Shown in pieces: positions 1-33,412 of a stretch of 64,000 nt of DNA (position 1 is the stretch's first letter; each line of letters begins with the position of its first letter). The translations under genes and the position numbers were made by a program. Below the pieces are notes generated by a model. It was not told the origin of the DNA. It saw only the letters and a list, made by a program, of their open reading frames with translations, and did no database searches. The DNA comes from Candidatus Hadarchaeota archaeon (GTDB lineage Archaea; CAYQAE01; CAYVLA01): positions 136,904 to 200,903 of the forward strand of contig CAZUNO010000002.1 of NCBI GenBank assembly GCA_964621445.1. The letters are read 5' to 3'.

Positions 1-1676
1 GTGGCAACGCCTGAGCTCGATTCGATGTCCAATGTGACCTCTTCTCCCGGTTCGCATTTATCCTTGGAAAACTCCGCCGACAGATTCACGGGGTTTACCA
101 GGTCAACGTCGAAGGGAATCGAGTCCGCGGCCACCTCCAGGTTGGGATTTATCACGTAGGCAACCAGCTTGGCCTTGGGCATCATATCGGGAGTTACCTT
201 GAAGGAGATATACCTCCCATCAGCATAACCCGAGTGTATGGTCCTGCCACCTGATACCACATCATAATAGGCATTTCTATCTGCGGTGGTCAAGACCTCG
301 AATGTGACCTCTTCCCCCACACTCACCTCGGCAGGCGAGATCTGCACTATGTGAACGAAGTAGCCACCCGGGGAGTACTGTGCATTTAAGGTGATCTGAT
401 TCTCGGATTCCGATCCCGGAAGGCTGGCCTTTAGATCGGCACTCGTACATTTGTCCGGCACATCGATCTCGACCGTGGTCATGCCCCTGAAGGTATTCAC
501 GCTTCGGGTTGTCCTGGTTGTCTTTCCGTTCTCCAGGCGATATACGACCTCGAATTCAACGCTTTTATCCAGGGGTTCTCCGTCCGGGGTCTCTGTTACT
601 ATCATTACATCCATGGGTAGACCAGGCTTTACGGTCTGGCTGGCGGGGATTACCTGAATCACGGTCGGGGAGTCGGCTACCTTGAGAAGCTTTGTGTCCT
701 TCTCCTCATGTCCCGCTCCATCGGTTACCGTGACATTTAGAATGACGCTGCCCAGGCCACCGGAACCGACGGTACCGGCAAGATACCCGGCCGCGGGGAT
801 TTCGAACTCGGCGACGCCGTTGGAAAGCCTTGAGTTGAATGTCGCGAACTTCTCCCAGTGAGCAACGTACTTGTAGGCCTCCACGAAAACGGTTCCCTCA
901 ACCGGTTTTCCGAAAAAGTACTCGGCATTTACCTGACCAGTTATCTCTTCATCGACCAGGAACCATCCCTTGGGCGTCTCCACACCTACATCGAATTTTG
1001 GAAGAACGTATTTCTCCACCCTGAAATCCACAGTGGCCGTTCCCGATTCGCTGTTTGCAGTTATCTTCCATGTTCCGGTGTTTACCTCTTTAGCCAGCGA
1101 AAGCTCGAAACTGGCCACACCAAATTCGTTGGCCGAGAGCTCCTTTCGGAATACCTTTATGCCTTTTGCATCGGATATGGATACGTTGATTTTCGTTTCA
1201 GTCGGTTTCAGGTCGGCGCTTAAGGCCAGCACGCGGCCGTAGAGGGTCTGACCTGGCTTGTAGATAGGCTTGTCGGTTTCTATTAACAGGGCTACCGAAT
1301 CCGCCAATATTACCTCTCCCGATACGTGCTCTCTATCGTCCCTCCCGGCGAGGACCAGGTCGTAGGTCCCCTTCTCGATACCGGGAACATCGAAGCGTGC
1401 TATTAGATGTCCATCAGGTCCAGTTCTCCCCCTAAAAAGCTCCACCTCTTTCTCCTGATTTCTGATGAAAAGCGATACCCTGCGGTCAACCGGCCTACCG
1501 GTATCGGGAGAGAAGGAAGAAATGCTAACCGAGGACTCAGTGCCTACATAAAACCTGTTTGGGGCCAGCACAATAAACTCGGCCGATGCGGCCTTTCCAA
1601 CCATGAGGGTGGGAGATATAATCTGTAAAAAAAGAAACAGGCAGACGACCAGAGAGCCATATCGATTTTCCGTCAA
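1..1676 (-). CDS. Alpha-2-macroglobulin/thioester-protein-like secreted protein (N-terminal MG domains; runs off left window edge)
   Basis: Manual translation from TTG at 1676 (GGTGA SD just upstream): MTENRYGSLVVCLFLFLQII signal peptide, FIVLAPN, LLIETDKPIYKPGQTLYGRV (MG2 motif), FRVEKYVLPKFDV, AEYFFGKPVEG, VTPDMMPKAKLVAYVI. Frame stays open to position 1. Absent from the ORF track because its stop is outside the window. Confidence 0.88.
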   Translation of the reverse strand, partial: MTENRYGSLVVCLFLFLQIISPTLMVGKAASAEFIVLAPNRFYVGTESSVSISSFSPDTGRPVDRRVSLFIRNQEKEVELFRGRTGPDGHLIARFDVPGIEKGTYDLVLAGRDDREHVSGEVILADSVALLIETDKPIYKPGQTLYGRVLALSADLKPTETKINVSISDAKGIKVFRKELSANEFGVASFELSLAKEVNTGTWKITANSESGTATVDFRVEKYVLPKFDVGVETPKGWFLVDEEITGQVNAEYFFGKPVEGTVFVEAYKYVAHWEKFATFNSRLSNGVAEFEIPAAGYLAGTVGSGGLGSVILNVTVTDGAGHEEKDTKLLKVADSPTVIQVIPASQTVKPGLPMDVMIVTETPDGEPLDKSVEFEVVYRLENGKTTRTTRSVNTFRGMTTVEIDVPDKCTSADLKASLPGSESENQITLNAQYSPGGYFVHIVQISPAEVSVGEEVTFEVLTTADRNAYYDVVSGGRTIHSGYADGRYISFKVTPDMMPKAKLVAYVINPNLEVAADSIPFDVDLVNPVNLSAEFSKDKCEPGEEVTLDIESSSGVA

Positions 1677-1863
1677 AGCAATCACCAGTTGAGTTCCATA
1701 TTGAAGTCAAGAGCTGGCAAAAAAGGGGGCCTAAGCTCCTAACACGGTAATTTCATTGCCTGAAACAATACATAATGGTTGCATGAAACGGTGTGAACCA
1801 ACGGGGGGAATGGTCCACATAGTGATTCAGGTTAGCCCTAACATACTAGATATCTAGCTGAAG

Positions 1864-3959: not shown

Positions 3960-4937
3960 TTATTGATTCCAGCGTTTTAGGCCCCAGAAAACCAACGAGA
4001 ACAATATGAATGGCGGAGTAAACTCCGGAATTTCAATGTTATCCACCAGAGACTCGAACTCATTTAGATGCAGTTGGTAGCCCTTGCCCTTACTTGTATA
4101 TATAAGGCTCAAAACCTTTTCTCCACAATCAAGCATCTCATATCTGGCCTTCACCTGGGAATGATTGGGCAAGGAATACGTGTACTCCATTATCCTGTTA
4201 CCCAGATCGTGAATGATTTCCTGGCTCTCAAAAAGGATTTCAACATTGGACATGGTCTCCCGCATCCCTTCCTTCTGGACCTCCAGGTATTCATCCAAGC
4301 TACCAGACCAGGTTTCGGATAGGAGCACAATATTTGTCTGAAAGCGGTCCTCCAGTGGCCCATAGAAGATAACCCCATTATTTAGGGTCTGCTCATCCAC
4401 TGCCCAGCCAACCGGATAGGTTAAATTCAGGTCCGGGTTCAGGTAACTATATTTGGGATCGAAGAAGCTAAGGGTGGATAACGATTCCTGGAACAATGGA
4501 AGGTAATGCTCGTATTGCCCTTTTGATGCTACATATGCCAGGTCATAGTACCTCCGTCCATATCGGATTATGATCTCCTTCATCTTGACCTCTGTGGACC
4601 CTTGCTGCCAGGAGCATATCAAAACCTGAGCCGGTAAATCCTTAAAGGTCGTATTACGATCAGACAAAACCACGAAATCGGAGAATATCTCCCGACAGTT
4701 TTCCCGGATGCCCCTGACTGTATCCTGAAGCGTTGATCTTGGGTTATCGAAGACATCGATGCTTAGTCTTGGGGAGAATCCATCACTCTGGCTCATGAAC
4801 AGGGCCAGGACATATGGGTTTTGTGACTCTCTCCAGCCCGGTGGCTGCTGTATGGAGAAACCCCATGATTCGCTTTGGTACGCCCAACAATGGGGTATCA
4901 ACACGATTGAAGCCAACAATATCCAGGTGATCTTCAT
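3960..4937 (-). CDS. Secreted tandem PsbP/DcrB-like domain protein with PEF-CTERM sorting signal
   Basis: Likely start MKITWILL (4937) with signal peptide; two repeats (FSIQQPPGW...FQESLSTL / LTYPVGW...FESLVDNI); C-terminus IPEF + hydrophobic stretch + KR. Confidence 0.7.
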   Translation of the reverse strand: MKITWILLASIVLIPHCWAYQSESWGFSIQQPPGWRESQNPYVLALFMSQSDGFSPRLSIDVFDNPRSTLQDTVRGIRENCREIFSDFVVLSDRNTTFKDLPAQVLICSWQQGSTEVKMKEIIIRYGRRYYDLAYVASKGQYEHYLPLFQESLSTLSFFDPKYSYLNPDLNLTYPVGWAVDEQTLNNGVIFYGPLEDRFQTNIVLLSETWSGSLDEYLEVQKEGMRETMSNVEILFESQEIIHDLGNRIMEYTYSLPNHSQVKARYEMLDCGEKVLSLIYTSKGKGYQLHLNEFESLVDNIEIPEFTPPFILFSLVFWGLKRWNQ

Positions 4938-5067
4938 TATCCCCAGCTTAGGGAAAAGATTCTGAAAAATAGGGCACCATCGGGCGACAAATTTTCGGGA
5001 CACTCACAAAAAAAACCCCTCGCCGGGACTCTCGGGAACATTTTCGAAGGTCCCCACCCCAGGTCCC

Positions 5068-23884: not shown

Positions 23885-24139
23885 TGGACACCTTGTGTCC
23901 CTCCCGTTCGTATATGAGATCTTAACTATAGCTAATTTTGTTTAAGGCTTGGCTCGAGGGGATTAACCTCTCGTATACGAAGTTTGAATTGGACCCGGTT
24001 CATGGACCATATTTCCTGCCGTGAGTCTCGCAGATTCCGAAAAAACATGCGCCGGGTCATCTATAAGCCATGGCCCAGCAAAATGACTAGAAGTGTTTTC
24101 CATGGCCCGTTATCTCATTTAGGGGGGAAATAGGATAGA

Positions 24140-26443
24140 ATGGCATGGGGACAAATAATCTATTTCACACCTCTTATTTCATCTTCAGCAATCTCTGTTG
24201 GGCTGGCCCTTTATGCTTGGAGACGGCATTCCTCGATTGGGAAAAAGGAGTTCTCCTTGCTGATGTTGTCCGTGGCCTGGTGGGCCTTTTTCTACGCCTT
24301 GGAGATGCAATCTAGCTCGCTGGGAAACAAGCTGTTACTGGCCAAGATCCAGTACCTGGGAATCGCTTCCGTACCTTTGATGTGGTCACTCTTTTCCCTC
24401 AGGTATACCGGTCGCGGAACATACCTCACAAAACCCAAGATCGGCCTTTTAGCCATTATTCCATTAACCACCGTTTCACTGGCTTTAACCAACGACTATC
24501 ACGGGCTTCTATGGTCAAATGTCTACCTAGCACAGACAGGAAATCTTGCCTACCTGGCAAAGACCTATGGTTTCTGGTTCTGGATAAATGCAGGATATTC
24601 CTATATTTTGATGATAATTGGGTCATTCCTCCTGCTTTACCATTCGAATAAGCTACCTGTGCTTTACCATGAGCAGGTCACCTGCCTTCTTATAGCCGCC
24701 TTTATGCCCATGATTGGTAATTTTCTTTACATTACTCGAATATCTCCAATGCCAAATATTGACTCCACCCCTTTCAGTTTCACCTTGGCAGGCCTGGCCC
24801 TGGCATGGGGCATATTCAGATATAGAATACTGGATATCGTTCCAGTTGCCAGGGACAAGGTCTTTGAAAAAACCAATGATTTGATCTATTTGCTCGACCG
24901 TCAGCTACGGGTCGTAGACCTTAATCCGGCGGCAGAATCATTGCTGAATGAATCTAGAGGCGGGTTCATCGGGAAGAGGTTGAATCAGGTTATGGATTTT
25001 CCAATTGATATGTCCGATCATATTGATGGAGAACACGGCTTCAAGGATCCTCTATGTATACAGATAGATGATCAGATGCGATTTTTTGATCTAACTGTAT
25101 CCCGCTTAAAGGATAATCAGGGGCGATTCGTGGGTCTTATACTATTCCTGAAGGATATTACCGAACGCAAGATGGTCGAGAATAACCTCAGAAGAACCAC
25201 AAAAAAACTGGATGAAAACGTGCGCCAGAGGACCCTGGAACTGGTGCACACCAACAGGGCCATGAGACAGGAAAATGAAGAAAGGAAGAAGGCCCAGAGA
25301 AAGCTTAAGCTTTCGCAGGAAAAATTGAGAACCACCCTGGATGCCTCTCCCGACTCGATCATCGTTATCGACATAGATGGGAGGATAATTGACTGCAATC
25401 CAGCAACAGCAGATATCTTTGAATATTCCTCCATTGAGGACGTGATAGGCAAGGAGGCTTTTTCCTTCGTATCAAAAGAGGACCTTGACAGGGTTCAATT
25501 CGATCGTCGTACCTGCCTGAACTCCGGGTTTATTCGTAATCATCAATACAAACTGATCACTAGCCACGGAAGAGAATTCCCCGCGGAGGTCTCCGCAAGC
25601 GTGGTCAAGGATTCAACGGGGTCACCATCACTATACGTGGTAATGAGCAGGGACATATCGGAAAGGAAAAGGAATGAAAAGGAACTACGCCGATACTCGG
25701 AAAGACTTGAAGATCTGGTTCAGGAAAAGAGCGAGGAGCTTCGAGATGCTGAAAGGATGGCCGCCATAGGCCAAACCGCTAGCATGGTTGGTCACGACCT
25801 AAGGAATCCCCTGCAGGCAATTTTAAATAACGTATATCTGGCCAGAAAACAATTGACGGGCGAAACGAATGGCGAATCCCTCAAGGGTCGACTAGAAATT
25901 ATACGAGACGAGATACTATACATGAACAAGATCGTATCCGACCTCCAGGACTTCGCCAAGCCACTGAAACCAGAACTCAGCCCAATAAATGTCAAATCCT
26001 TAATTCAAAACATCTTGACTGGATTAAACCTGCCCAAAAAGGTAGATGTGTCTATAGACCTGAAGGATACACTTACCTTAGAGATGGATTCGATGATGAT
26101 GAAGAGGGTGTTAACAAATCTGGTAAATAATGCAATTCAGGCCATGCCTGACGGTGGGAAACTAAAGATTTCGGCCGATGGGGGAAATGGCATAGCCCAT
26201 ATCTCTGTCAGTGACACCGGCACTGGAATCTCCCCCGATGACAAGGAGAAGGTATTCAAGCCCCTTTTCACCACCAAGGCCAAGGGACAGGGATTTGGCC
26301 TTGCTGTCTGTGAACGATTTGTGACCGCTCACCAGGGGAGAATAACGATCGACACCGAACTAAGGGTTGGTACAACTTTCACAATTCATATACCAGCCCA
26401 TCCGAATCATAAAACCCAGGAAGAATCACCAGTTGCGACCTAG
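24140..26443 (+). CDS. Sensor histidine kinase (HisKA_7TM + 2 PAS + HisKA + HATPase)
   Basis: 7TM N-terminus (LTNDYHGLLW), PAS ends KDITERK/RDISERK, H-box HDLRNPL, N-box NLVNNA, DTGTG, LFTTK, GQGFGL. Confidence 0.95.
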   Translation: MAWGQIIYFTPLISSSAISVGLALYAWRRHSSIGKKEFSLLMLSVAWWAFFYALEMQSSSLGNKLLLAKIQYLGIASVPLMWSLFSLRYTGRGTYLTKPKIGLLAIIPLTTVSLALTNDYHGLLWSNVYLAQTGNLAYLAKTYGFWFWINAGYSYILMIIGSFLLLYHSNKLPVLYHEQVTCLLIAAFMPMIGNFLYITRISPMPNIDSTPFSFTLAGLALAWGIFRYRILDIVPVARDKVFEKTNDLIYLLDRQLRVVDLNPAAESLLNESRGGFIGKRLNQVMDFPIDMSDHIDGEHGFKDPLCIQIDDQMRFFDLTVSRLKDNQGRFVGLILFLKDITERKMVENNLRRTTKKLDENVRQRTLELVHTNRAMRQENEERKKAQRKLKLSQEKLRTTLDASPDSIIVIDIDGRIIDCNPATADIFEYSSIEDVIGKEAFSFVSKEDLDRVQFDRRTCLNSGFIRNHQYKLITSHGREFPAEVSASVVKDSTGSPSLYVVMSRDISERKRNEKELRRYSERLEDLVQEKSEELRDAERMAAIGQTASMVGHDLRNPLQAILNNVYLARKQLTGETNGESLKGRLEIIRDEILYMNKIVSDLQDFAKPLKPELSPINVKSLIQNILTGLNLPKKVDVSIDLKDTLTLEMDSMMMKRVLTNLVNNAIQAMPDGGKLKISADGGNGIAHISVSDTGTGISPDDKEKVFKPLFTTKAKGQGFGLAVCERFVTAHQGRITIDTELRVGTTFTIHIPAHPNHKTQEESPVAT

Positions 26444-26455
26444 ATAAAGGTGAAT

Positions 26456-27616
26456 TTAACCTTTTTGTTTCAATTCTATATTCCTCTCAAGCAGAGACCT
26501 CTGCCGTTTATCAAAGCACTCAAGGGAGAGGACTAACAGGAGGGTTGCTCCTTTAGATGAGGCCTTATCCGAGAGATCATATAGACACTTCATTGTAGGT
26601 TCAAACCCGTTATTTATGACCAAGTATTCCAAACCATCTAGGAGGATGGCCGCGCCCTCGGTTTTATCCAGGAAGGAAGAGATGACGCCTCCAACCATCC
26701 CCACGTTCGCCGACCCTAGTGCTTCCTCGTTCAATTTTTCACGGGTGAGCCAGATAATCGGGGTCTGAGTTAGGGCGAAATTTCTTTTAACTGAATCCGG
26801 GGATCTGCGGGTTACGCACAGACCCGGGATATCAATGGACACCATATGTGATAAGGCTCTAAAGGCCTCTTTCTCCGATCTAAAGAGATAGGCCTCTCCT
26901 TTCTCCAGGAGACGTTCTCGATTCACAGAATTATCCCTTGCTCTTTCTTCTTTCCTAGGTTTAAGACTGAATAGCCTGTACTTTTCAGTAGTAATCGAGA
27001 ACCCTATAACGAAAGCCATTGTTGCAAGGGCTGAGAACCCGTCAACCATTTCCGCGACTAGTGGTAAGAGTCTAGTTTCCAATAAGAAATTGTGGACGAT
27101 CTTTGAGCCAACTAAAATTAGCGAACAATAACCCATAATCAAAACGGGTACCTTAAGAACGGGGGTTGAATTTCGTATCTGGAGCCATATTATATATCCC
27201 AATACGATGCCCGAGGCGATAAACCCCACTGCCATGATCCTTGGAACTAGCTTATTTCCTGCTGGTAATGCCAGAACTACGAAACTAAGAATGGCCAATG
27301 GACTGAATACCGCAGCTGTTCCCTTTCTACATGAAAGGAAATCCACCTCTCTTGGATATTTACCCAGAACAAATGCCATAAGGGTAACAATGGCCATTAT
27401 GGCAAGATTATTGATAATAAGGGCTAGAGATCCCGAGCGAAATATCAAGAAAGAATCCAACACAATGAGCAGAGAAGATGCAAGAAGTAGAGTTGGGATA
27501 ATGACTACAATCCATTTCATATGGCTACTTAATTCCCTTCTAGAGATGGATACTCCAACTACTATTGATAGGATTGCCGTACTAATCCACAATGCATCCA
27601 CGGAGCTCAGCAACAA
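26456..27616 (-). CDS. Membrane protein with C-terminal DUF835 (inactive KaiC/RecA-like) domain
   Basis: About 7 TM then GLCVTR, IIWLT, LLDGLEYLVINNGFE, SLLER. Confidence 0.88.
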   Translation of the reverse strand: MLLSSVDALWISTAILSIVVGVSISRRELSSHMKWIVVIIPTLLLASSLLIVLDSFLIFRSGSLALIINNLAIMAIVTLMAFVLGKYPREVDFLSCRKGTAAVFSPLAILSFVVLALPAGNKLVPRIMAVGFIASGIVLGYIIWLQIRNSTPVLKVPVLIMGYCSLILVGSKIVHNFLLETRLLPLVAEMVDGFSALATMAFVIGFSITTEKYRLFSLKPRKEERARDNSVNRERLLEKGEAYLFRSEKEAFRALSHMVSIDIPGLCVTRRSPDSVKRNFALTQTPIIWLTREKLNEEALGSANVGMVGGVISSFLDKTEGAAILLDGLEYLVINNGFEPTMKCLYDLSDKASSKGATLLLVLSLECFDKRQRSLLERNIELKQKG

Positions 27617-27629
27617 ACCCGTTCCTACC

Positions 27630-28307
27630 TTACTCGTAAAGTACGCCTTTTACCTGCAATCCCTCATCCGTTATCTCCAGCAGCCGTTTTCTGAGATCGT
27701 GTTTAGAGCCCCTTAGCTTCTTGATTTGGATATAGCGGTTAACGTCATTAACCGTCTCCTTGAAACCAAGTTCTACCACGCCATCCACAAGATACTCCAA
27801 AGATGTTGGATTTGAAGTCTCTGTGACTAGCACTAGTCGAGAACTAGTTTCAATTGCCAGGTCTAGAATCATCTCTATTGAACACGGTTCCCTCTCCCCC
27901 ACGGTCTGAGCCACTGCATCCCAACTGTCTATCGAGATTATGGGCTCATCAATGTCCGTTATTATTGTGTCCAGAGCCTGAACGAAACCAGGCATGTTAC
28001 CATAACGTAAATTCTTGAGAAGTCCACCATCCTTGGCTGGTCGACTGTTCACAGCATCTATGACCCCGCTTGGTGGCACCGACTTTTTGGCCCAGGGAAA
28101 CATCTCATATAACCTGTCAGGGTCAACTCTGGTTGATACGTACAGACCATTGCCGTTTTCACAGATTTCTTTCAAAAATGTAAGAGTAAATACCGTCTTT
28201 CCCGACCCAGGCGCTCCCTTCACGCATAAGGAGTAACCGGGAAACCTGTTCACCGTGTCGGTTATCTCTTTTGGTAAAGACAAATCTTGACCTCCCTTGT
28301 ACATCAA
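27630..28307 (-). CDS. GvpD-like/KaiC-family P-loop ATPase
   Basis: KGAPGSGKT Walker A, YVSTRV, IDSWD, LEYLVDGVVEL, KKLRG. Confidence 0.85.
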   Translation of the reverse strand: MMYKGGQDLSLPKEITDTVNRFPGYSLCVKGAPGSGKTVFTLTFLKEICENGNGLYVSTRVDPDRLYEMFPWAKKSVPPSGVIDAVNSRPAKDGGLLKNLRYGNMPGFVQALDTIITDIDEPIISIDSWDAVAQTVGEREPCSIEMILDLAIETSSRLVLVTETSNPTSLEYLVDGVVELGFKETVNDVNRYIQIKKLRGSKHDLRKRLLEITDEGLQVKGVLYE

Positions 28308-28334
28308 CCAGCCACTCTATTTAAAAACAAATGC

Positions 28335-28358
28335 ATTTGACTATTTGACTATTTGACC
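28335..28358. repeat. Three tandem 8-bp direct repeats ATTTGACT/ATTTGACT/ATTTGACC
   Basis: Read directly; lies just upstream of a minus-strand TTTTAAATA TATA-like box for the ATPase gene. Confidence 0.7.
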
Positions 28359-28459
28359 TAAGTATCCTTAAAATGGAGCCCCTTTCCTTTGTCCCATTAT
28401 GGGAATTTCCCAATATAGTTGATTATTTTCTAAATTATTTGGAAGTATCCAAGATCCTT

Positions 28460-29124
28460 CTCTCAAACACTGTGAACAGGCTCTGGGAACAGGTCTCATG
28501 CAGTATCGGCGAACTGGACCTGCCCAGGGAGAAATGTGTCATGGTGGATGACACTGGGCCGGCTATCCGTGCCTGTTTAAAGGACAGCGCATCTGCCCAT
28601 CAGCTCTACATCCTCCACATAGTCAGGGTTTTTCAAGCTCTGGAACAGGGAAATACCGGTCGAGACCAGGCTCTCGCTAGTCAAGGATCTGTCATCCACC
28701 CTCTTCTCCTTGGTGGGGTCGGTGAAGAAACACCTCCTCTCACCCAACCTGGCAAGGATGAGGCGGAGGATCACCAGACCTTGGAGGCCCTGGGCAGCTA
28801 TGTGGCAAGACTCAAGAAAGAGGGATCCGTCTCTGCAGCCAGCTTTGTTTCCAGGTCTGTCTAGGAAATGGTTGTCTTCACCAGGCTGGCCCTGGAACAC
28901 GTCAAGATCCTTTAAACCGTCAACCTGATGGAGAGGCTGATGGGCGAGGTGCCAAGAGAGTCAAGAACATGTTGGCACACTGGTCCCAGAGAGGACTAAA
29001 AAATCTGCTAACCCTACTCCTGGTCAGATACACCAACAAAAACCTGTATAAATCCGCATGTAAACACATCTACCACCAAACCGAAACCACAACCAACACG
29101 CTCAGATGCAAGACACAAAGATAG
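28460..29124 (+). mobile_element. Decayed ISH6-family (IS256-like DDE) transposase, 3' fragment
   Basis: Pieced across frames: VNRLWEQ..VMVDD..HQLYILH / FKLWNRE..LVGSVKKH / LKKEGSVSAASF..*EMVVF..* / TVNLMERLMGEV-KRVKNMLAHWSQRGLKNLLTLLLVRY; stops at 28862 and 28913 plus frameshifts; terminal IRs not identified. Confidence 0.72.
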
Positions 29125-29378
29125 CCACTAACAGAACAGCACCAATTATTTTCATATAATATGATGCCTAACTATGGGTATAGGTTCAATAACTCGAGTT
29201 TGAATAAGAATTCCTACCTTTATCCCCTTTCAATCACCCGACATCTTCATTCCACATAATAGGCCCCCCCAATTTATGGTATTGGTCAAGCCCTTTTCAC
29301 TTATGGTCCAAATCCTGGTTATACGTGATCTTTTGATCCCACCGGGTTGTAATCCTTTACTTGATGACCTTACATACT

Positions 29379-29660
29379 CTATTCAACTTCGCCGAAGCGC
29401 CCTCTAGATATGTTCTTAAGCTCCCTGGACCTAAGCTCCGACACCATATAGTCCAATACTTTATCGGCGGAGGTACCTAATACTTCCTTCAGCTCCCGTT
29501 TGAAGACCTGTGGATTTTGTGGAATCTCTCCACCCATATATTCCAACGCTCGAGAGGCCAGCGAATCGCCCAGGATTTCCACTAGGCTATATTTAGCAAG
29601 ACGACGGAATTCACGAGGAGAGACCAACTTCTTAGATACATCTGCAAATTCATCCTCCAT
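29379..29660 (-). CDS. Small helical protein (DUF3227/NitrOD-like)
   Basis: LVEILGDSLA..NPQVFKRELKEVLG pattern; directly downstream of the response regulator. Confidence 0.6.
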   Translation of the reverse strand: MEDEFADVSKKLVSPREFRRLAKYSLVEILGDSLASRALEYMGGEIPQNPQVFKRELKEVLGTSADKVLDYMVSELRSRELKNISRGRFGEVE

Positions 29661-29726
29661 CTATCCACCCCCCCCCCGTAATTAGGGCATAGACGATCGG
29701 AAATTGATAGGATCATCTTGTTATAT

Positions 29727-30197
29727 TCAAACCTCCTTTTCCTGTTCCAACTTCCTTATCCTTGCCTCAACCCATTGCGTAACCTTCTCCTCACTCATGG
29801 ATTCGGCTTCTTCCTGTTCAGCAAGCTTTTCCTTAACCGTCTCCAACAATACATCCGGTTTAACCGGTTTGGTCAAATATCCATCCGCTCCCTGGTTAAC
29901 GGAATCGACAGCGTTCTCCAAACTGGCGTGACCAGTCACCATAACCTTCATCATCATGGGCCTTGACTCATGGAGCTTTCTAAGTAGTGTAGTCCCATTC
30001 ATTCCTGGGAGCTTTATATCTAGAAAAGCTAGATCATAGTAGTTCTGTTTTGATAAATCACACGCATTCTCCGCCGATTCAGCAAAATCGACCTGGTATC
30101 CTTCCGACTTCAAGATACTCTCAAAGCTCTCTAGTATCGCCTTGTCGTCATCCACGATCAGAATTTTCTTCTCAACCATTTTGAAATCCCCTTTCAC
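29727..30197 (-). CDS. Stand-alone response regulator receiver
   Basis: ILIVDDD, FLDIKLP (phospho-Asp), VTG, YLTKP; short C-terminal helix. Confidence 0.95.
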   Translation of the reverse strand: MKGDFKMVEKKILIVDDDKAILESFESILKSEGYQVDFAESAENACDLSKQNYYDLAFLDIKLPGMNGTTLLRKLHESRPMMMKVMVTGHASLENAVDSVNQGADGYLTKPVKPDVLLETVKEKLAEQEEAESMSEEKVTQWVEARIRKLEQEKEV

Positions 30198-30375
30198 TTA
30201 CGGCAAGTACCAAAAACCCTCTGCTCTGTGACCACATAACATCATTAAGTTTTGATGATCTAGGTTCATATAGTTACTACATTTCTAAAAAGGGCCCAAT
30301 ATCGTTAAAAATACTTCCCAATCTATCGTGAATATATTGAGACTTTTCCAATAATATGATAAAAAGTATTGCTTT

Positions 30376-31728
30376 TCAGAGATCCTTTGGTAATTCTCGA
30401 GTTTCTCGCTCCAGAAAGGCCAACTGCCTTTCTTTGAAACAGTTTCGCGGAACTACCAGCAGAAGCCTGGACTCGTTCTGAACCACATTATCTCTGATGT
30501 CATAAAGAGAGTTCATTGTCCTCTCGAAGCCATTGTTCAGTACCAGGTATTCGAGGCCATCAAGAAATACAATTCCCCTGGAAGTCTCATCGAGAAATGA
30601 TTTAGTTAAATCACTAACTATACCCACATTAGAAGACCCTAAGGCCTCATCCATTCCATCTTCGTTTGATAACCACACGTAACGAACGTTATCAGCATCT
30701 AATTCATTTCTTATACCATCCGGGTTTCTTCTGGTGATGCATAGACCAGGAACTCCACTCTTGACCAGTTCTCCGAATATTTTCAGCATCCTTTCGTCTT
30801 CATTGAATGAATATATACCTTCTTCCTTTAACCCCATGTACTTGCCATCAACCCTACGGCTTCCTATTTCGATCTCTTTGAAGGATTTCAGGATACCGCT
30901 CTTGAGAACATACAAACCTAGACTAATGGTAACAAGAAGAGCGGCCAAGCCTGAAAGAAAGTAAATCAAATCTCCGTATCTACTGCTACCAAACTGATTC
31001 AATGAGTAATTTAGTGGATGTAACCCGATCAGTAGTGATGCAGAAGCGCCTATCAATACCAAAGAAATTCTCCGCTCTCCGGAAAGTTCTTTTACCCGAC
31101 GATTTACCAAAATAGGGACGACCACCACGAATATCCCAGAACCAATTATGAACAGAGCCCCTGGTCGCTGCAGGAGAGATCCCGCCTGAAACCTCCCCAA
31201 TCCCTCCAAGATAATTCCAATAGCTCCAATAATTAATGGTAGGTAAACAATTAGATGGCTTTCCACGCCAAGGGGTCTTGCCACTCCTCTGCCAATAATC
31301 ATCAGAAACCAGCTCAGTAACCCGGCCATGGCAAGAATAACTAAATCAGTAAACACTGGACTAAAATAGATAGCAAATTCAGGTACTAGATTCAGAAAAG
31401 AATAGATGAAGAGAAGCAGGAGCACACCCAAACAGGGCACGAATGGTTTTTTGCGCAGTATCTTCCTAGCAATAGTGGATCCCGCAACAGCACCCAGCAC
31501 ACCATTTAGTTCCTCCTTGATCCCTTCCGGGTCATCGAATAGTCCCTTCCTCTCCAAATGGCCCGCTAATGCTCCTCCCGGTCCTGGACCCAGAAAATTT
31601 CTCAGTCTTTCAATTAATTCACTCCGTCTTGAATTACGATACTGGTACCACTTGACAAATAGCCATGCTGAAAATCCGAATGATGATAAGGAAACCATAA
31701 CCCAAATTATTTCAGATATTACATTCAA
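30376..31728 (-). CDS. Membrane protein with inserted helical domain and C-terminal DUF835 domain
   Basis: TM1, soluble insert (LRNFLG..DPEGIKEELNGVLG), further TMs, GLCITR, VWLS, FLDGLEYLVLNNGFE. Confidence 0.88.
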   Translation of the reverse strand: MNVISEIIWVMVSLSSFGFSAWLFVKWYQYRNSRRSELIERLRNFLGPGPGGALAGHLERKGLFDDPEGIKEELNGVLGAVAGSTIARKILRKKPFVPCLGVLLLLFIYSFLNLVPEFAIYFSPVFTDLVILAMAGLLSWFLMIIGRGVARPLGVESHLIVYLPLIIGAIGIILEGLGRFQAGSLLQRPGALFIIGSGIFVVVVPILVNRRVKELSGERRISLVLIGASASLLIGLHPLNYSLNQFGSSRYGDLIYFLSGLAALLVTISLGLYVLKSGILKSFKEIEIGSRRVDGKYMGLKEEGIYSFNEDERMLKIFGELVKSGVPGLCITRRNPDGIRNELDADNVRYVWLSNEDGMDEALGSSNVGIVSDLTKSFLDETSRGIVFLDGLEYLVLNNGFERTMNSLYDIRDNVVQNESRLLLVVPRNCFKERQLAFLERETRELPKDL

Positions 31729-31872
31729 AATTCAAGCACCAAGGATCGACCCTGGGTCGGTTGATATAAGGCCGCTTCTGGAATATTGAATATGTTGAGC
31801 GATAAAAGTTTTGAGTTTCAAGGGATGCTCCCATTGCGATTTTCAATCCGAATGCTCTAAATCGCAAGGCTT

Positions 31873-31889
31873 TTTCATAGTTTATGAAA
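31873..31889. promoter_or_regulatory. Perfect palindrome TTTCATA-N3-TATGAAA (candidate operator)
   Basis: Read directly in the divergent intergenic region; near copy at 29150-29166. Confidence 0.35.
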
Positions 31890-32161
31890 TTATCATGCTT
31901 TTTGGAGAATATCCCCCTGCACTTTTCTGGACAAAAAGTCCGAAGTAAAAGATGAGTGACTATAAAATAACCCACGATTTCCCGGAAAATCTCTGCCAGG
32001 GGAAATGGCTGGATGTGAGATCGAATACCGAATCGGCGCTTTCCAAGATCATTTTTCAGCGTAAAATTCCTAGTATAGTAATTCCACCAAGTCAGGCTGA
32101 GCCCCAATCGGGAAGACCTTTATTCGTGTCCTCCCAACCCAATTGAGAGGATACATTTCCC

Positions 32162-33412
32162 TTGATTAACTCAATTAATATCACCGGTAAATTGAATCAG
32201 TACCTGGATATCCTAGCCAGGATTTGCTTATTTCTCGTATGGATAGCACTGATGTCACCCGCTGTGAACTGTTTTGATGATTCTAACAGAGCAAAGGTCC
32301 TTTACATTGGTGACACCGGCTTTGAAACCTGGCGGGATATCGCCGGAGACCCCCTCTTGATCACCACAGCGGTCCCAGCAAGTGTGGGTCATTTTCCAAG
32401 TGATCAAATTGAAAGGTACATGAGGCAATACATTCCCAGGACTTACACAAGGTACTCATCTGATGTGGACCTGCTCATACTGAGTGATACAGACCGCCAG
32501 CTTTTCACCACGAAGCAACAAACCTGGTTCAAGAAGGGCGTTTTTGAGGAAGGCCAAGGATTAATCATGGCTGGAGGGCTTGAGGCCTTCGGAGGAGCCG
32601 GGTGGGGGAGTTCCTGGGAGGGTTCCTCAGTTGCTGATGTACTCCCCGTGAATCTTTTGACCGGTGAGGTATGGAATCTGCATCCATTCCATGCCAGACC
32701 AACCGAGGAATCGTCAAATCATCCCCTAATCACCTCCCTCCCCTGGAACACTATGCCCACTTTTGGCGGTATGAATAGGGTAACCACCAAGACATGGGCG
32801 GAGGTGCTTCTGAAGGCAGCTGGACCTGGAATTAGCTCCTCCGAGAATCTACCGGTTCTAGTCCATGGGGAAGTGGGGGAGGGTTCATCTCTGGCCCATA
32901 CACCTGACTGGAACCCTGGTTGGGGAGGCAGGGTTATGAGGGAATGGGAGTATTACCCAGATTATCTGATTAATATGGCATATCTGATGGTCGGTGTTTC
33001 CATACCGCAGAATCTGCAGTTATCACACCTGGTGAGAACCGAGTTGGCAAACCATATTCAGCGGATGAGCGTCACCCTGTCCTTTCTCGAGTTCGCCGAG
33101 GATTTTGGCGCCAACATACACCCCCTGGAAATGCGTCTATCAAAGGCAGCCCAAATGAAGGATGAGGCCGATGCTTTGTATATCGATCAGGATCTTGAGG
33201 CTGTTCTGGAAAAGATGAGGCAGGTCCGGGATCTGATGGATGATATAAACCAGCAGGCCATAGAACTCAAGGACAGGGCCCTTGTCTGGGTCTACGCCGT
33301 GGAGTGGCTGGCGGTCACCGGAACCTTCCTTGTGTGTGGGTTCATTCTGTGGACTTTGATGGTCCGTAAGAGATTCTATAAAAGAGTGGAGATGACCAAA
33401 TTACAGGGTTAA
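32162..33412 (+). CDS. Uncharacterised surface protein, paralogue 2
   Basis: KVLYIGD, RQYIPRTY, MAGGLEAFGG, LPV, HPLI..LPW, FAEDFGAN, ALVWVYAVEW, RKRFY. Confidence 0.87.
   Translation: MINSINITGKLNQYLDILARICLFLVWIALMSPAVNCFDDSNRAKVLYIGDTGFETWRDIAGDPLLITTAVPASVGHFPSDQIERYMRQYIPRTYTRYSSDVDLLILSDTDRQLFTTKQQTWFKKGVFEEGQGLIMAGGLEAFGGAGWGSSWEGSSVADVLPVNLLTGEVWNLHPFHARPTEESSNHPLITSLPWNTMPTFGGMNRVTTKTWAEVLLKAAGPGISSSENLPVLVHGEVGEGSSLAHTPDWNPGWGGRVMREWEYYPDYLINMAYLMVGVSIPQNLQLSHLVRTELANHIQRMSVTLSFLEFAEDFGANIHPLEMRLSKAAQMKDEADALYIDQDLEAVLEKMRQVRDLMDDINQQAIELKDRALVWVYAVEWLAVTGTFLVCGFILWTLMVRKRFYKRVEMTKLQG

Follow-up and report, generated by a model that had tools for sequence, protein, structure and literature searches.

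We analysed a 64,000-nucleotide stretch of DNA from a Candidatus Hadarchaeota archaeon (assembly GCA_964621445.1, contig CAZUNO010000002.1; hereafter the window, G000:C2:136904-200903), at the left edge of which lies part of a gene for a protein of the alpha-2-macroglobulin (A2M) and thioester-containing protein (TEP) superfamily. The window holds codons 1-561 of this gene as a minus-strand open reading frame (ORF) at positions 3..1685, beginning with a GTG codon and cut off at its 3′ end by the window edge. When 10 kb more were read beyond window base 1, the full frame proved to have 1419 codons on the minus strand (L002:7426-11685), with the other 858 codons and the stop at G000:C2:134329-136903 (L002:7426-10000). 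Since the gene crosses the window edge, it was overlooked by an ORF track restricted to the window. The initial annotation had pointed to this omission and had described an open minus-strand frame of more than 550 codons with a signal peptide; the 561-codon ORF and its Sec-type N-terminus agree with that description. The four motifs quoted there are all present in the translation: ETDKPIYKPGQT (residues 136-147, window 1245-1280), EKYVLPKFDV (residues 224-233, window 987-1016), YFFGKPVEG (residues 256-264) and VTPDMMPKAKLVAY (residues 497-510).

The gene encodes a complete member of the superfamily, with the eight-macroglobulin-domain (MG) architecture of animal CD109, TEP, A2M and C3 (Table 1). 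The in-window part alone gave Pfam matches far above chance (A2M_BRD 8e-22, MG2 5e-20, MG3 3e-14, with MG4 weak), and the full-length protein matched, in the order found in animals, MG2, MG3, MG4, A2M_BRD, A2M, TED_complement and A2M_recep; a search of NCBIfam with the whole protein returned no family. Within MG2, all of 23 aligned sequences share residues E136, T137, D138, P140-P144 and Q146. The whole protein was modelled with AlphaFold2 as two overlapping halves, residues 1-700 (mean predicted local distance difference test score (pLDDT) 83.0, predicted template modelling score (pTM) 0.73) and residues 601-1419 (mean pLDDT 80.7, pTM 0.70). Values of pLDDT below 50 were found at the N-terminus and the signal-peptide ends, at residues 594-611, 643-683 (bait), 893-896 (a short loop beside the thioester) and 1371-1391 (in the C-terminal linker), and at the last four residues. 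In Foldseek searches the C-terminal half resembled native A2ML1 (query TM-score (TMq) 0.71), CD109 (0.69; root-mean-square deviation 4.4 Å, 701 columns) and A2M (0.69), as well as native C3 (0.66-0.67), C5 (0.68-0.69) and TEP1 (0.64-0.66), and fitted activated forms poorly (C3b 0.30, induced A2M 0.44). The model of residues 1-700 matched the MG rings of CD109, C3, C4 and C5 (TMq 0.64-0.73), aligning across 635-685 columns with CD109, C3 and C5. No bacterial A2M appeared among the listed rows of either search. The fold is accordingly modelled, and predicted, as native-like.

To place the sequence features among homologues, we used a protein search in which 7999 candidates were scored, 2741 of them with E ≤ 0.001; counts out of 120 refer to the best 120 matches listed. 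The thioester motif GCGEQN (Cys899-Gln902) lies in the thioester domain (TED), where it aligns with the motifs of CD109, A2ML1 and A2M, and it is retained in all 120 homologues. His1013 (gfvcHqemlgg) aligns, in the TED, with a His in CD109 and A2ML1 and with an Asn in A2M, and a His occupies this position in 33 of the 34 prokaryotic rows of the protein's clade. Nielsen et al. 2022 (PMC9156758) describe an attack of the corresponding His on the nascent thioester, which yields an acyl-imidazole reactive with both hydroxyl and amine groups, and a plug, formed by Arg730-Pro734 of native A2ML1, that threads a channel. The counterpart of this plug is the R681-E686 region, in which R681, F684, P685 and E686 are invariant among 43 aligned sequences, including four animal proteins; R..FPETW is present in 119 of the 120 homologues. 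Residues 601-660 form the least conserved stretch of the ectodomain (identity to the query 0.26-0.33 in the 23-sequence alignment), the bait varies in length from 75 to 107 residues across the 23 sequences, and its pLDDT is below 50 in both half models. Both flanks of the bait are conserved (identity 0.80 for residues 571-600 and 0.58-0.64 for the other flank, RVRQFFPETWYW). The residue classes known to matter for the trigger and for thioester chemistry thus all appear to be under conservation, and the retention of GCGEQN, His and plug, together with a hypervariable bait between conserved flanks, argues for selection on the mechanism. The A2M/CD109-like product is apparently functional.

Within this superfamily, the protein can be assigned, on the basis of its sequence, to the animal (CD109-like) type and not to the type of Escherichia coli YfhM. 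A phmmer search of the PDB retrieved human CD109 (5.8e-125, 421.6 bits, residues 129-1318), A2M (1.3e-111), A2ML1 (1.3e-110), C3 (1.9e-95) and mosquito TEP1 (4.2e-89), the bit scores of A2ML1 (374) and TEP1 (303) both lying under that of CD109; there was no bacterial A2M among the best 60 of the 82 matches. The TED alone scored 195 bits with CD109, 159 with A2ML1, 142 with A2M, 138 with TEP1, about 118 with C4 and about 112-116 with C3, against 23 bits (E = 4.8e-4) with YfhM, and BLASTP of the whole protein against YfhM gave 45 bits and 23% identity over ~300 residues. The Pfam families of YfhM (bMG1, A2M_bMG2, bMG3, bMG5, bMG6, bMG10 and CUB_A2MG) match neither the archaeal protein nor its Planctomycetota and Methanolobus relatives. 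MG3, A2M_recep and a complete TED_complement are found in all three instead, and MG4 in two of them, whereas YfhM lacks A2M_recep, MG3 and MG4 and matches TED_complement only at 4e-08 and over profile positions 18-121. The proposal of the initial annotation, an A2M-like protein of animal type in an archaeon, is therefore well borne out: bait, GCGEQN, TED and receptor-binding domain were found in the adjacent sequence, the C-terminal half model matches native CD109, A2ML1, C3 and A2M, the protein groups with animal TEPs and not among YfhM-type A2Ms in the trees described below, and the genome carries archaeal rRNA. The motif comparisons behind the proposal also stand, YVLPKF[ED]V being present in all six named animal TEPs fetched, and YfhM reading RDLYRPGE at the place equivalent to TDKPIYKPGQ and having the lipobox LALAGC of a lipoprotein at its N-terminus.

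The sequence MIALTENRYGSLVVCLFLFLQIISPTLMVGKAASA|EF at the N-terminus is laid out as a Sec signal peptide, with n, h and c regions and an AxA cleavage motif; homologues of the protein's own clade read ...(A/S)SA|E(Y/F)I at the end of the signal peptide, and residues 9-23 are modelled as a lone helix. Beyond MG8 the protein continues for ~65 extra residues, comprising an acidic linker, a predicted helix (residues 1392-1414) and the tail KTFGARNGI. Such a C-terminal hydrophobic helix with a basic tail is present in all nine listed members of its own clade (P0002-P0010, the window protein included) and in none of the other 111 listed hits, while a lipobox-like N-terminus occurs in none of the nine and in 64 of the 111. 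The simplest reading is that of a type I membrane protein with the A2M body wholly outside the cell, and this lineage-specific C-terminal membrane anchor is the sole peculiarity of the window protein. Two genes of the exosortase/archaeosortase family (PF09721; 61 bits each) are present in the genome (G000:C19:27284-28000 and G000:C2:79898-80566). No known C-terminal sorting domain was detected in the whole A2M protein with NCBIfam, and by eye its tail has no motif in common with the 96 ORFs, out of 3107 in the genome, that end in a C-terminal helix and basic tail; archaeosortase processing of the tail is a minor possibility. In a homologue from Hydrogenedentota (L064), too, arginines come after a hydrophobic stretch at the C-terminus (...LVLGTVVLVFILARGRRRPS...), which points to an anchor or sorting signal of independent origin there.

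Table 1. The A2M/CD109-like gene and the features of its product
Feature	Window position	Strand	Evidence
A2M/CD109-like gene, in-window part, codons 1-561	3..1685	-	ORF listing
GTG start codon (predicted)	1683..1685	-	in-frame TTG at codon 4 = alternative start
Signal peptide, aa 1-35, predicted cleavage after AASA, no lipobox	1581..1685	-	sequence, homologues, model
MG1 beta-sandwich, aa 36-128	1302..1580	-	strands E36-E128 at pLDDT 81-94; no Pfam model covers region
MG2, aa 135-223, contains ETDKPIYKPGQT	1017..1283	-	Pfam PF01835, 7.7e-19
MG3 start, aa 224-279, contains EKYVLPKFDV	849..1016	-	Pfam PF17791, 3.7e-14
MG4, aa 349-421	423..641	-	Pfam PF17789, 1.1e-05, 25.9 bits vs cut-off 24.7; strands in model
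A2M_BRD (MG5/MG6), aa 448-576; aa 448-561 in window	3..344	-	Pfam PF07703, 3e-24
Bait region, about aa 601-680	outside window	-	alignment, pLDDT
MG7 (Pfam A2M), aa 687-776	outside window	-	4.6e-29
CUB halves, about aa 777-880 and 1161-1268	outside window	-	
TED, aa 880-1160, with Cys899, Gln902, His1013	outside window	-	TED_complement 2e-72
Receptor-binding domain/MG8 (A2M_recep), aa 1269-1353	outside window	-	1.5e-15
Linker, aa 1354-1391	outside window	-	
Transmembrane helix, aa 1392-1414, then tail KTFGARNGI	outside window	-	model helix

Proteins of this kind are widespread. Among the listed homologues are entries named "alpha-2-macroglobulin family protein", "A-macroglobulin like protein" and, from JGI, "CD109 antigen", from Methanolobus, Methanococcoides, Methanomethylovorans, anaerobic methanotrophic archaea (ANME-2), Ca. 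Methanogaster and Planctomycetota. A survey of one genome per prokaryotic species found at least 817 stretches with GCGEQNM[MI] or ETDKPIYK, at least 807 of which were confirmed; the best 80 of these loci come from Methanosarcinales, Ca. Methanoperedens, Altiarchaeota, Phycisphaerae/Sedimentisphaerales/Pirellulales, Omnitrophota and Hydrogenedentota. A HMMER search with residues 129-1318 against 1.84 billion cluster representatives returned 18,900 matches at E ≤ 0.001 and 3,665 at E ≤ 1e-30. Makarova et al. 2021 (PMC8416519) list archaeal A2M homologues, including ones from Methanomicrobia such as WP_015053894.1 of Methanolobus psychrophilus, the segment of which in the supplement (from residue 719) is identical to our hit P0072 (AFV24188.1, Methanolobus psychrophilus R15; 46% identity to the window protein). 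Full-text literature searches, with few subscription journals covered, found no paper on the prokaryotic CD109-like group as such. The window protein therefore adds to a known, already annotated kind.

These results qualify the initial annotation. The protein, there called secreted, is not free, having a C-terminal transmembrane helix with a basic tail. Nor is it an isolated oddity; the same type is encoded at the 807 or more loci just described, in Archaea and Bacteria, where relatives carry annotations and a Methanolobus member is in print (PMC8416519). The contrast drawn in the initial annotation between animal-type proteins and lipoproteins does not hold either, given the lipobox-like N-terminus of 64 of the 111 more distant animal-like hits listed.

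To relate the protein to the rest of the family we sorted the top 150 representatives by thioester motif. Alongside GCGEQN/T/A these include 98 with GCFEQT (1500-2100 residues, 30-36% identity) and 11 with GCGEQS, or 13 once the archaeal loci L095 and L096 are counted, besides a few single variants (GCMEQ, GCNEQ) and four truncated rows in which the motif is missing. Named animal proteins account for six of the GCGEQN/T rows, namely CD109-like proteins of a chiton, a mussel and Lingula, TEP1-like proteins of a millipede and a mosquito, and an A2ML1-like gene model of a fish. The fish (P0147) and Lingula (P0239) rows contain two thioester motifs each; in both the gene model has probably fused tandem genes. 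Many proteins of the GCFEQT class (P0149-P0270) have ~300-400 extra N-terminal residues, some of them starting like anti-sigma factors (for example ...EELTLKLLDGEITDEE...), and none of the 98 has the FPETW plug motif. In the GCGEQS class (L095, L096; P0155-P0236), of which L095 and L096 are archaeal members (genomes G011 and G034), a membrane helix takes the place of a cleaved signal at the N-terminus, and Asn stands at the His position in both of the two rows aligned.

Trees were built with FastTree (164 rows, rooted on YfhM), with IQ-TREE under LG+G4 with ultrafast bootstrap (45 rows) and as a quick posterior mean site frequency (PMSF) C20 tree (30 rows). Representatives shorter than 1200 residues (13 of the 150) were omitted from the tree sets, and P0147, P0239, P0246, L097 and YfhM, as long or doubtful, from the 45- and 30-row sets; a further 76-row tree omits open-ended loci, loci under 1300 residues and two duplicates. 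Only 4-6 animal sequences, none of the C3 branch, were available; the trees are unrooted in principle, and drew a flag for composition heterogeneity in every run. A GCGEQN superclade is split from the GCGEQS and GCFEQT classes with 100/100 support in the 45-row tree, 100 by the Shimodaira-Hasegawa-like approximate likelihood ratio test (SH-aLRT) in the PMSF tree and 100 in the 164-row FastTree, where YfhM falls outside all other groups. The superclade consists of two sister clades. Clade i (100/100; 100 PMSF) unites the animal TEPs, themselves one clade (100/100), with unnamed metagenomic proteins; in a search with one of the latter, all 16 taxon-named hits among 120 listed were from Chloroflexota (Anaerolineae, Chloroflexia, Dehalococcoidia and SAR202). 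Clade ii (100/99; 83 PMSF) is prokaryotic and comprises the proteins of the window's phylum, an Undinarchaeales-containing cluster, Methanosarcinales with Altiarchaeota, and Planctomycetota/Omnitrophota/Hydrogenedentota. In these trees the nearest prokaryotic relatives of animal TEPs are Chloroflexota proteins and not the archaeal clade of the window protein. Grouping the 31 prokaryotic GCGEQN rows on one side was rejected by the approximately unbiased (AU) test (delta lnL 54.5, p = 0.0036), for a group named after the tree had been viewed. Within clade ii the window clade was sister to a bacterial clade with 99 SH-like support (76 rows) and 99 SH-aLRT (31 rows), joined Methanosarcinales/Altiarchaeota at 95 (164 rows), and grouped with Bacteria at only 72/39 (45 rows) and 81 (30 rows, PMSF). 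Because this placement varies with sampling, we make no claim about donor and recipient among prokaryotes, and take no side on Makarova et al.'s reading 'acquired from bacteria'.

According to a much-cited view, prokaryotic A2Ms came from metazoans. Our data mildly favour a prokaryotic origin of animal thioester proteins. The animals form one clade among prokaryotic members of the superclade, further prokaryotic classes lie outside it, the AU test rejects uniting the prokaryotic rows, and matches number 18,900, all of which leaves a prokaryotic origin open, the direction of transfer being beyond what an unrooted tree alone can give. It may be, and we put this forward tentatively, at a little under even chances, that the animal TEPs (CD109, insect TEPs, A2M and by extension C3) derive from a prokaryotic CD109-like lineage by one transfer into an early animal. 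If so, the archaeal protein would be a living member of the donor stock, with the animal architecture, a His-assisted thioester, a plug-in-channel trigger and a CD109-like C-terminal tether. Such an origin would reverse both the transfer from metazoans to bacteria, for which "non-definitive hypothesis" is still the term in a 2026 review (PMC13069473), and the proposal of Nielsen et al. 2022 (PMC9156758) that the ancestral A2M family was CD109-like and "originated in animals". The relevance to the origin of thioester proteins that the initial annotation had seen in the gene thus holds for the prokaryotic clade as a whole, and does not for the window gene, to which Chloroflexota proteins are to be preferred as the nearer relatives of animal TEPs.

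The host is an uncultured archaeon; its genome carries small- and large-subunit rRNA genes for which the archaeal Rfam models win in their clans. The A2M protein is present in four of the five genomes of the phylum as defined by GTDB, and 7 of 41 genomes in a sample of relatives have any match; the two nearest named records (63% and 59% identity) are labelled Candidatus Hadarchaeota by the submitter. The order of genes for a DegT aminotransferase, an SPFH/Band 7 protein, the A2M protein and a convergent Zn-dependent dehydrogenase (Zn-ADH) is kept in all four genomes, the three others of the family having relatives 59-69% identical in the same position, and was not found at the Methanosarcinales, Altiarchaeota, Planctomycetota and Hydrogenedentota loci compared. 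With a G+C content (GC) like that of its surroundings, the A2M gene is a stable chromosomal resident of the lineage, in no obvious operon with a functional partner. The intergenic gap upstream of it is 178 bp, to which no archaeal promoter was assigned when it was read; a sigma-70/terminator scan found 4 promoter-like sites against 4.2 expected, the sigma-70 model being uninformative for an archaeal host. The DegT gene is adjoined by a minus-strand gene (window 3960-5003), the 347-residue product of which is hydrophobic at both ends and matches DcrB only just above the threshold (27.6 bits, cut-off 27.2). Farther into the window, GC falls to 0.42-0.47 at about 24000-32000, from about 0.52 elsewhere; this stretch encodes a HisKA_7TM/PAS histidine kinase (24140-26443), DUF835 proteins (26456-27616 and 30376-31728) and a KaiC/GvpD-like P-loop ATPase (27630-28307). 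Next to it, on the plus strand (32162-33412), is a GATase1_like gene (Pfam 1.1e-16) belonging to a secreted family of ~410 residues, with about 20 further ORFs genome-wide and a near-invariant C-terminal anchor, ...WVY.IEW-[TM]-RR.LYREV...

The most likely function of the protein, and one that we consider rather probable, is that of a surface-tethered, thioester-based protease trap; we infer its export, the formation of the thioester, the capture of proteases and the resulting protection of the envelope against exogenous ones. The protein would be exported by Sec, and its signal peptide cleaved after AASA, leaving an ectodomain of ~1350 residues held at the cytoplasmic membrane by the flexible acidic linker, the helix of residues 1392-1414 and a short basic cytoplasmic tail. 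Before activation, TED and MG8 would enclose the Cys899-Gln902 thioester between them. Cleavage of the exposed, poorly conserved bait loop (about residues 601-680) by a foreign endopeptidase would free the RxxFFPETW plug and let the CUB-TED unit swing out, whereupon His1013 would attack the thioester, and the acyl-imidazole so formed would react with amines or hydroxyls on the nearby protease to give a covalent bond. The captured protease would be kept at the cell surface, away from envelope proteins. We favour the trap because bait cleavage, thioester exposure and covalent capture have already been shown for tested monomeric relatives. Several points weigh against it. An archaeal envelope may have no need of protection from proteases. 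Thioesters of the His type also characterise C3, C4B, TEP1 and CD109, opsonin-like proteins that are not traps, and monomeric TEPs trap poorly without the covalent bond. Neither a cognate protease nor a functionally linked neighbour was found near the gene, SPFH, DegT and Zn-ADH being uninformative on proteolysis. The start codon (GTG or TTG) and the cleavage of the signal peptide are predictions from sequence, and the C-terminal helix could be a removable sorting signal instead of an anchor.

The same chemistry would serve a protein for covalent tagging or adhesion, on the lines of C3, TEP1 and perhaps CD109, in which the activated, His-assisted thioester esterifies hydroxyls on a foreign or partner surface (a virus, a neighbouring cell, a glycan or mineral-bound organic matter) and so marks or covalently binds it. 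We regard this as less likely than the trap, though the His-type thioester and the cell tether leave considerable room for it. The protein has a cell tether, as has CD109, and its relatives are found in lineages that form consortia or live as episymbionts (ANME-2, Methanoperedens, Altiarchaeota, the Undinarchaeales cluster and Omnitrophota). His1013 is of the C3/C4B/A2ML1/CD109 type and not the Asn of A2M, which brings reactivity with hydroxyls as well as amines (PMC9156758), and immune or conflict roles have been proposed for archaeal A2M homologues by Makarova et al. 2021 (PMC8416519). However, the bacterial A2Ms tested so far are protease inhibitors (PMC9156758); no gene nearby codes for a convertase-like activating protease, a receptor or a downstream effector, and the long hypervariable bait suits many proteases better than one dedicated activator. 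It is quite improbable that the A2M fold has been kept in a structural cell-surface protein with the thioester mechanism abandoned: no functional partner was found nearby and many MG/Ig-rich archaeal surface proteins are structural, but loss of the mechanism sits badly with GCGEQN in 120 of 120 homologues, His in 33 of 34, the plug in 119 of 120 and a hypervariable bait between conserved flanks. We give practically no credence to a standard YfhM/ECAM-type A2M acquired from bacteria and paired with a cell-wall repair enzyme, in view of the 45-bit, 23% match to YfhM, the TED scores of 23 bits against 195 for CD109, the missing bMG families and lipobox, the want of a pbpC-like neighbour and the position of YfhM outside all groups in the 164-row tree. 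That the best solved-structure matches are all animal, in a metagenome-assembled genome of 89 contigs with 4.2% estimated contamination, might suggest eukaryotic contamination or a mis-binned contig; this explanation, too, is hardly tenable, since the 1419-codon frame is uninterrupted on a 203-kb contig and has the GC of its surroundings, identity to animals is only about 30%, the nearest relatives are all prokaryotic, and relatives 59-69% identical are syntenic in three other genomes of the family.

The textbook picture of the superfamily sets animal TEPs beside structurally distinct bacterial proteins of the YfhM/MagD type, the latter as loans from animals. To these is added here a third, very large prokaryotic group, in anaerobic archaea, Planctomycetota, Chloroflexota and others, with the complete animal architecture and the trigger residues. 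Animal TEPs branch inside this group, which makes the origin of the complement/TEP family testable, and its prokaryotic members offer simple monomeric models of the CD109-type mechanism. Taken by itself, the window gene is a modest finding, a well-preserved A2M-family member that can be annotated as such, kept at the cell by a lineage-specific anchor, in an archaeal phylum of which little is known.

Among known systems, human CD109 (PDB 8s3o native, 9fx2/9fx3 activated) has the same domain order as the window protein, eight MG domains with CUB and TED, and the thioester motif and His at the same positions, at an identity of only about 30%. The C-terminus holds both proteins at the cell surface, CD109 through a glycosylphosphatidylinositol (GPI) anchor and the archaeal protein, in contrast, through a transmembrane helix with a basic tail. 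The documented roles of CD109 are in animal cell signalling, for which we know of no established prokaryotic counterpart, and the window protein lies outside the animal CD109 branch, the animals forming their own clade (100/100) and the window protein belonging to the all-prokaryote clade ii. Closer to it are the Methanosarcinales and Planctomycetota relatives, such as AFV24188.1, which are 46-50% identical over 93-96% of the length and share the Pfam set, GCGEQN, His, plug and clade ii. They stop right after MG8, where the window clade adds its ~65 residues with the membrane helix; most of the Methanosarcinales proteins have an N-terminal lipobox (SGCIG) and some Planctomycetota proteins dockerin-like tails, whereas the window clade has a plain signal peptide. 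YfhM (ECAM) and Salmonella A2M belong to the same superfamily (MG2, A2M_BRD, A2M and a CxEQ thioester) and are tethered to the envelope, and the job proposed for YfhM, the trapping of foreign proteases, is the one we propose for the window protein. YfhM, however, is a lipoprotein (LALAGC) with the motif GCLEQT and extra N-terminal bMG domains, while the window protein has no lipobox, and yfhM of E. coli adjoins pbpC, where the window gene adjoins SPFH, DegT and Zn-ADH. A2ML1 and insect TEP1 have the monomer-type architecture of the window protein, with a His-type thioester in A2ML1, and are soluble animal proteins, unlike their tethered archaeal relative.

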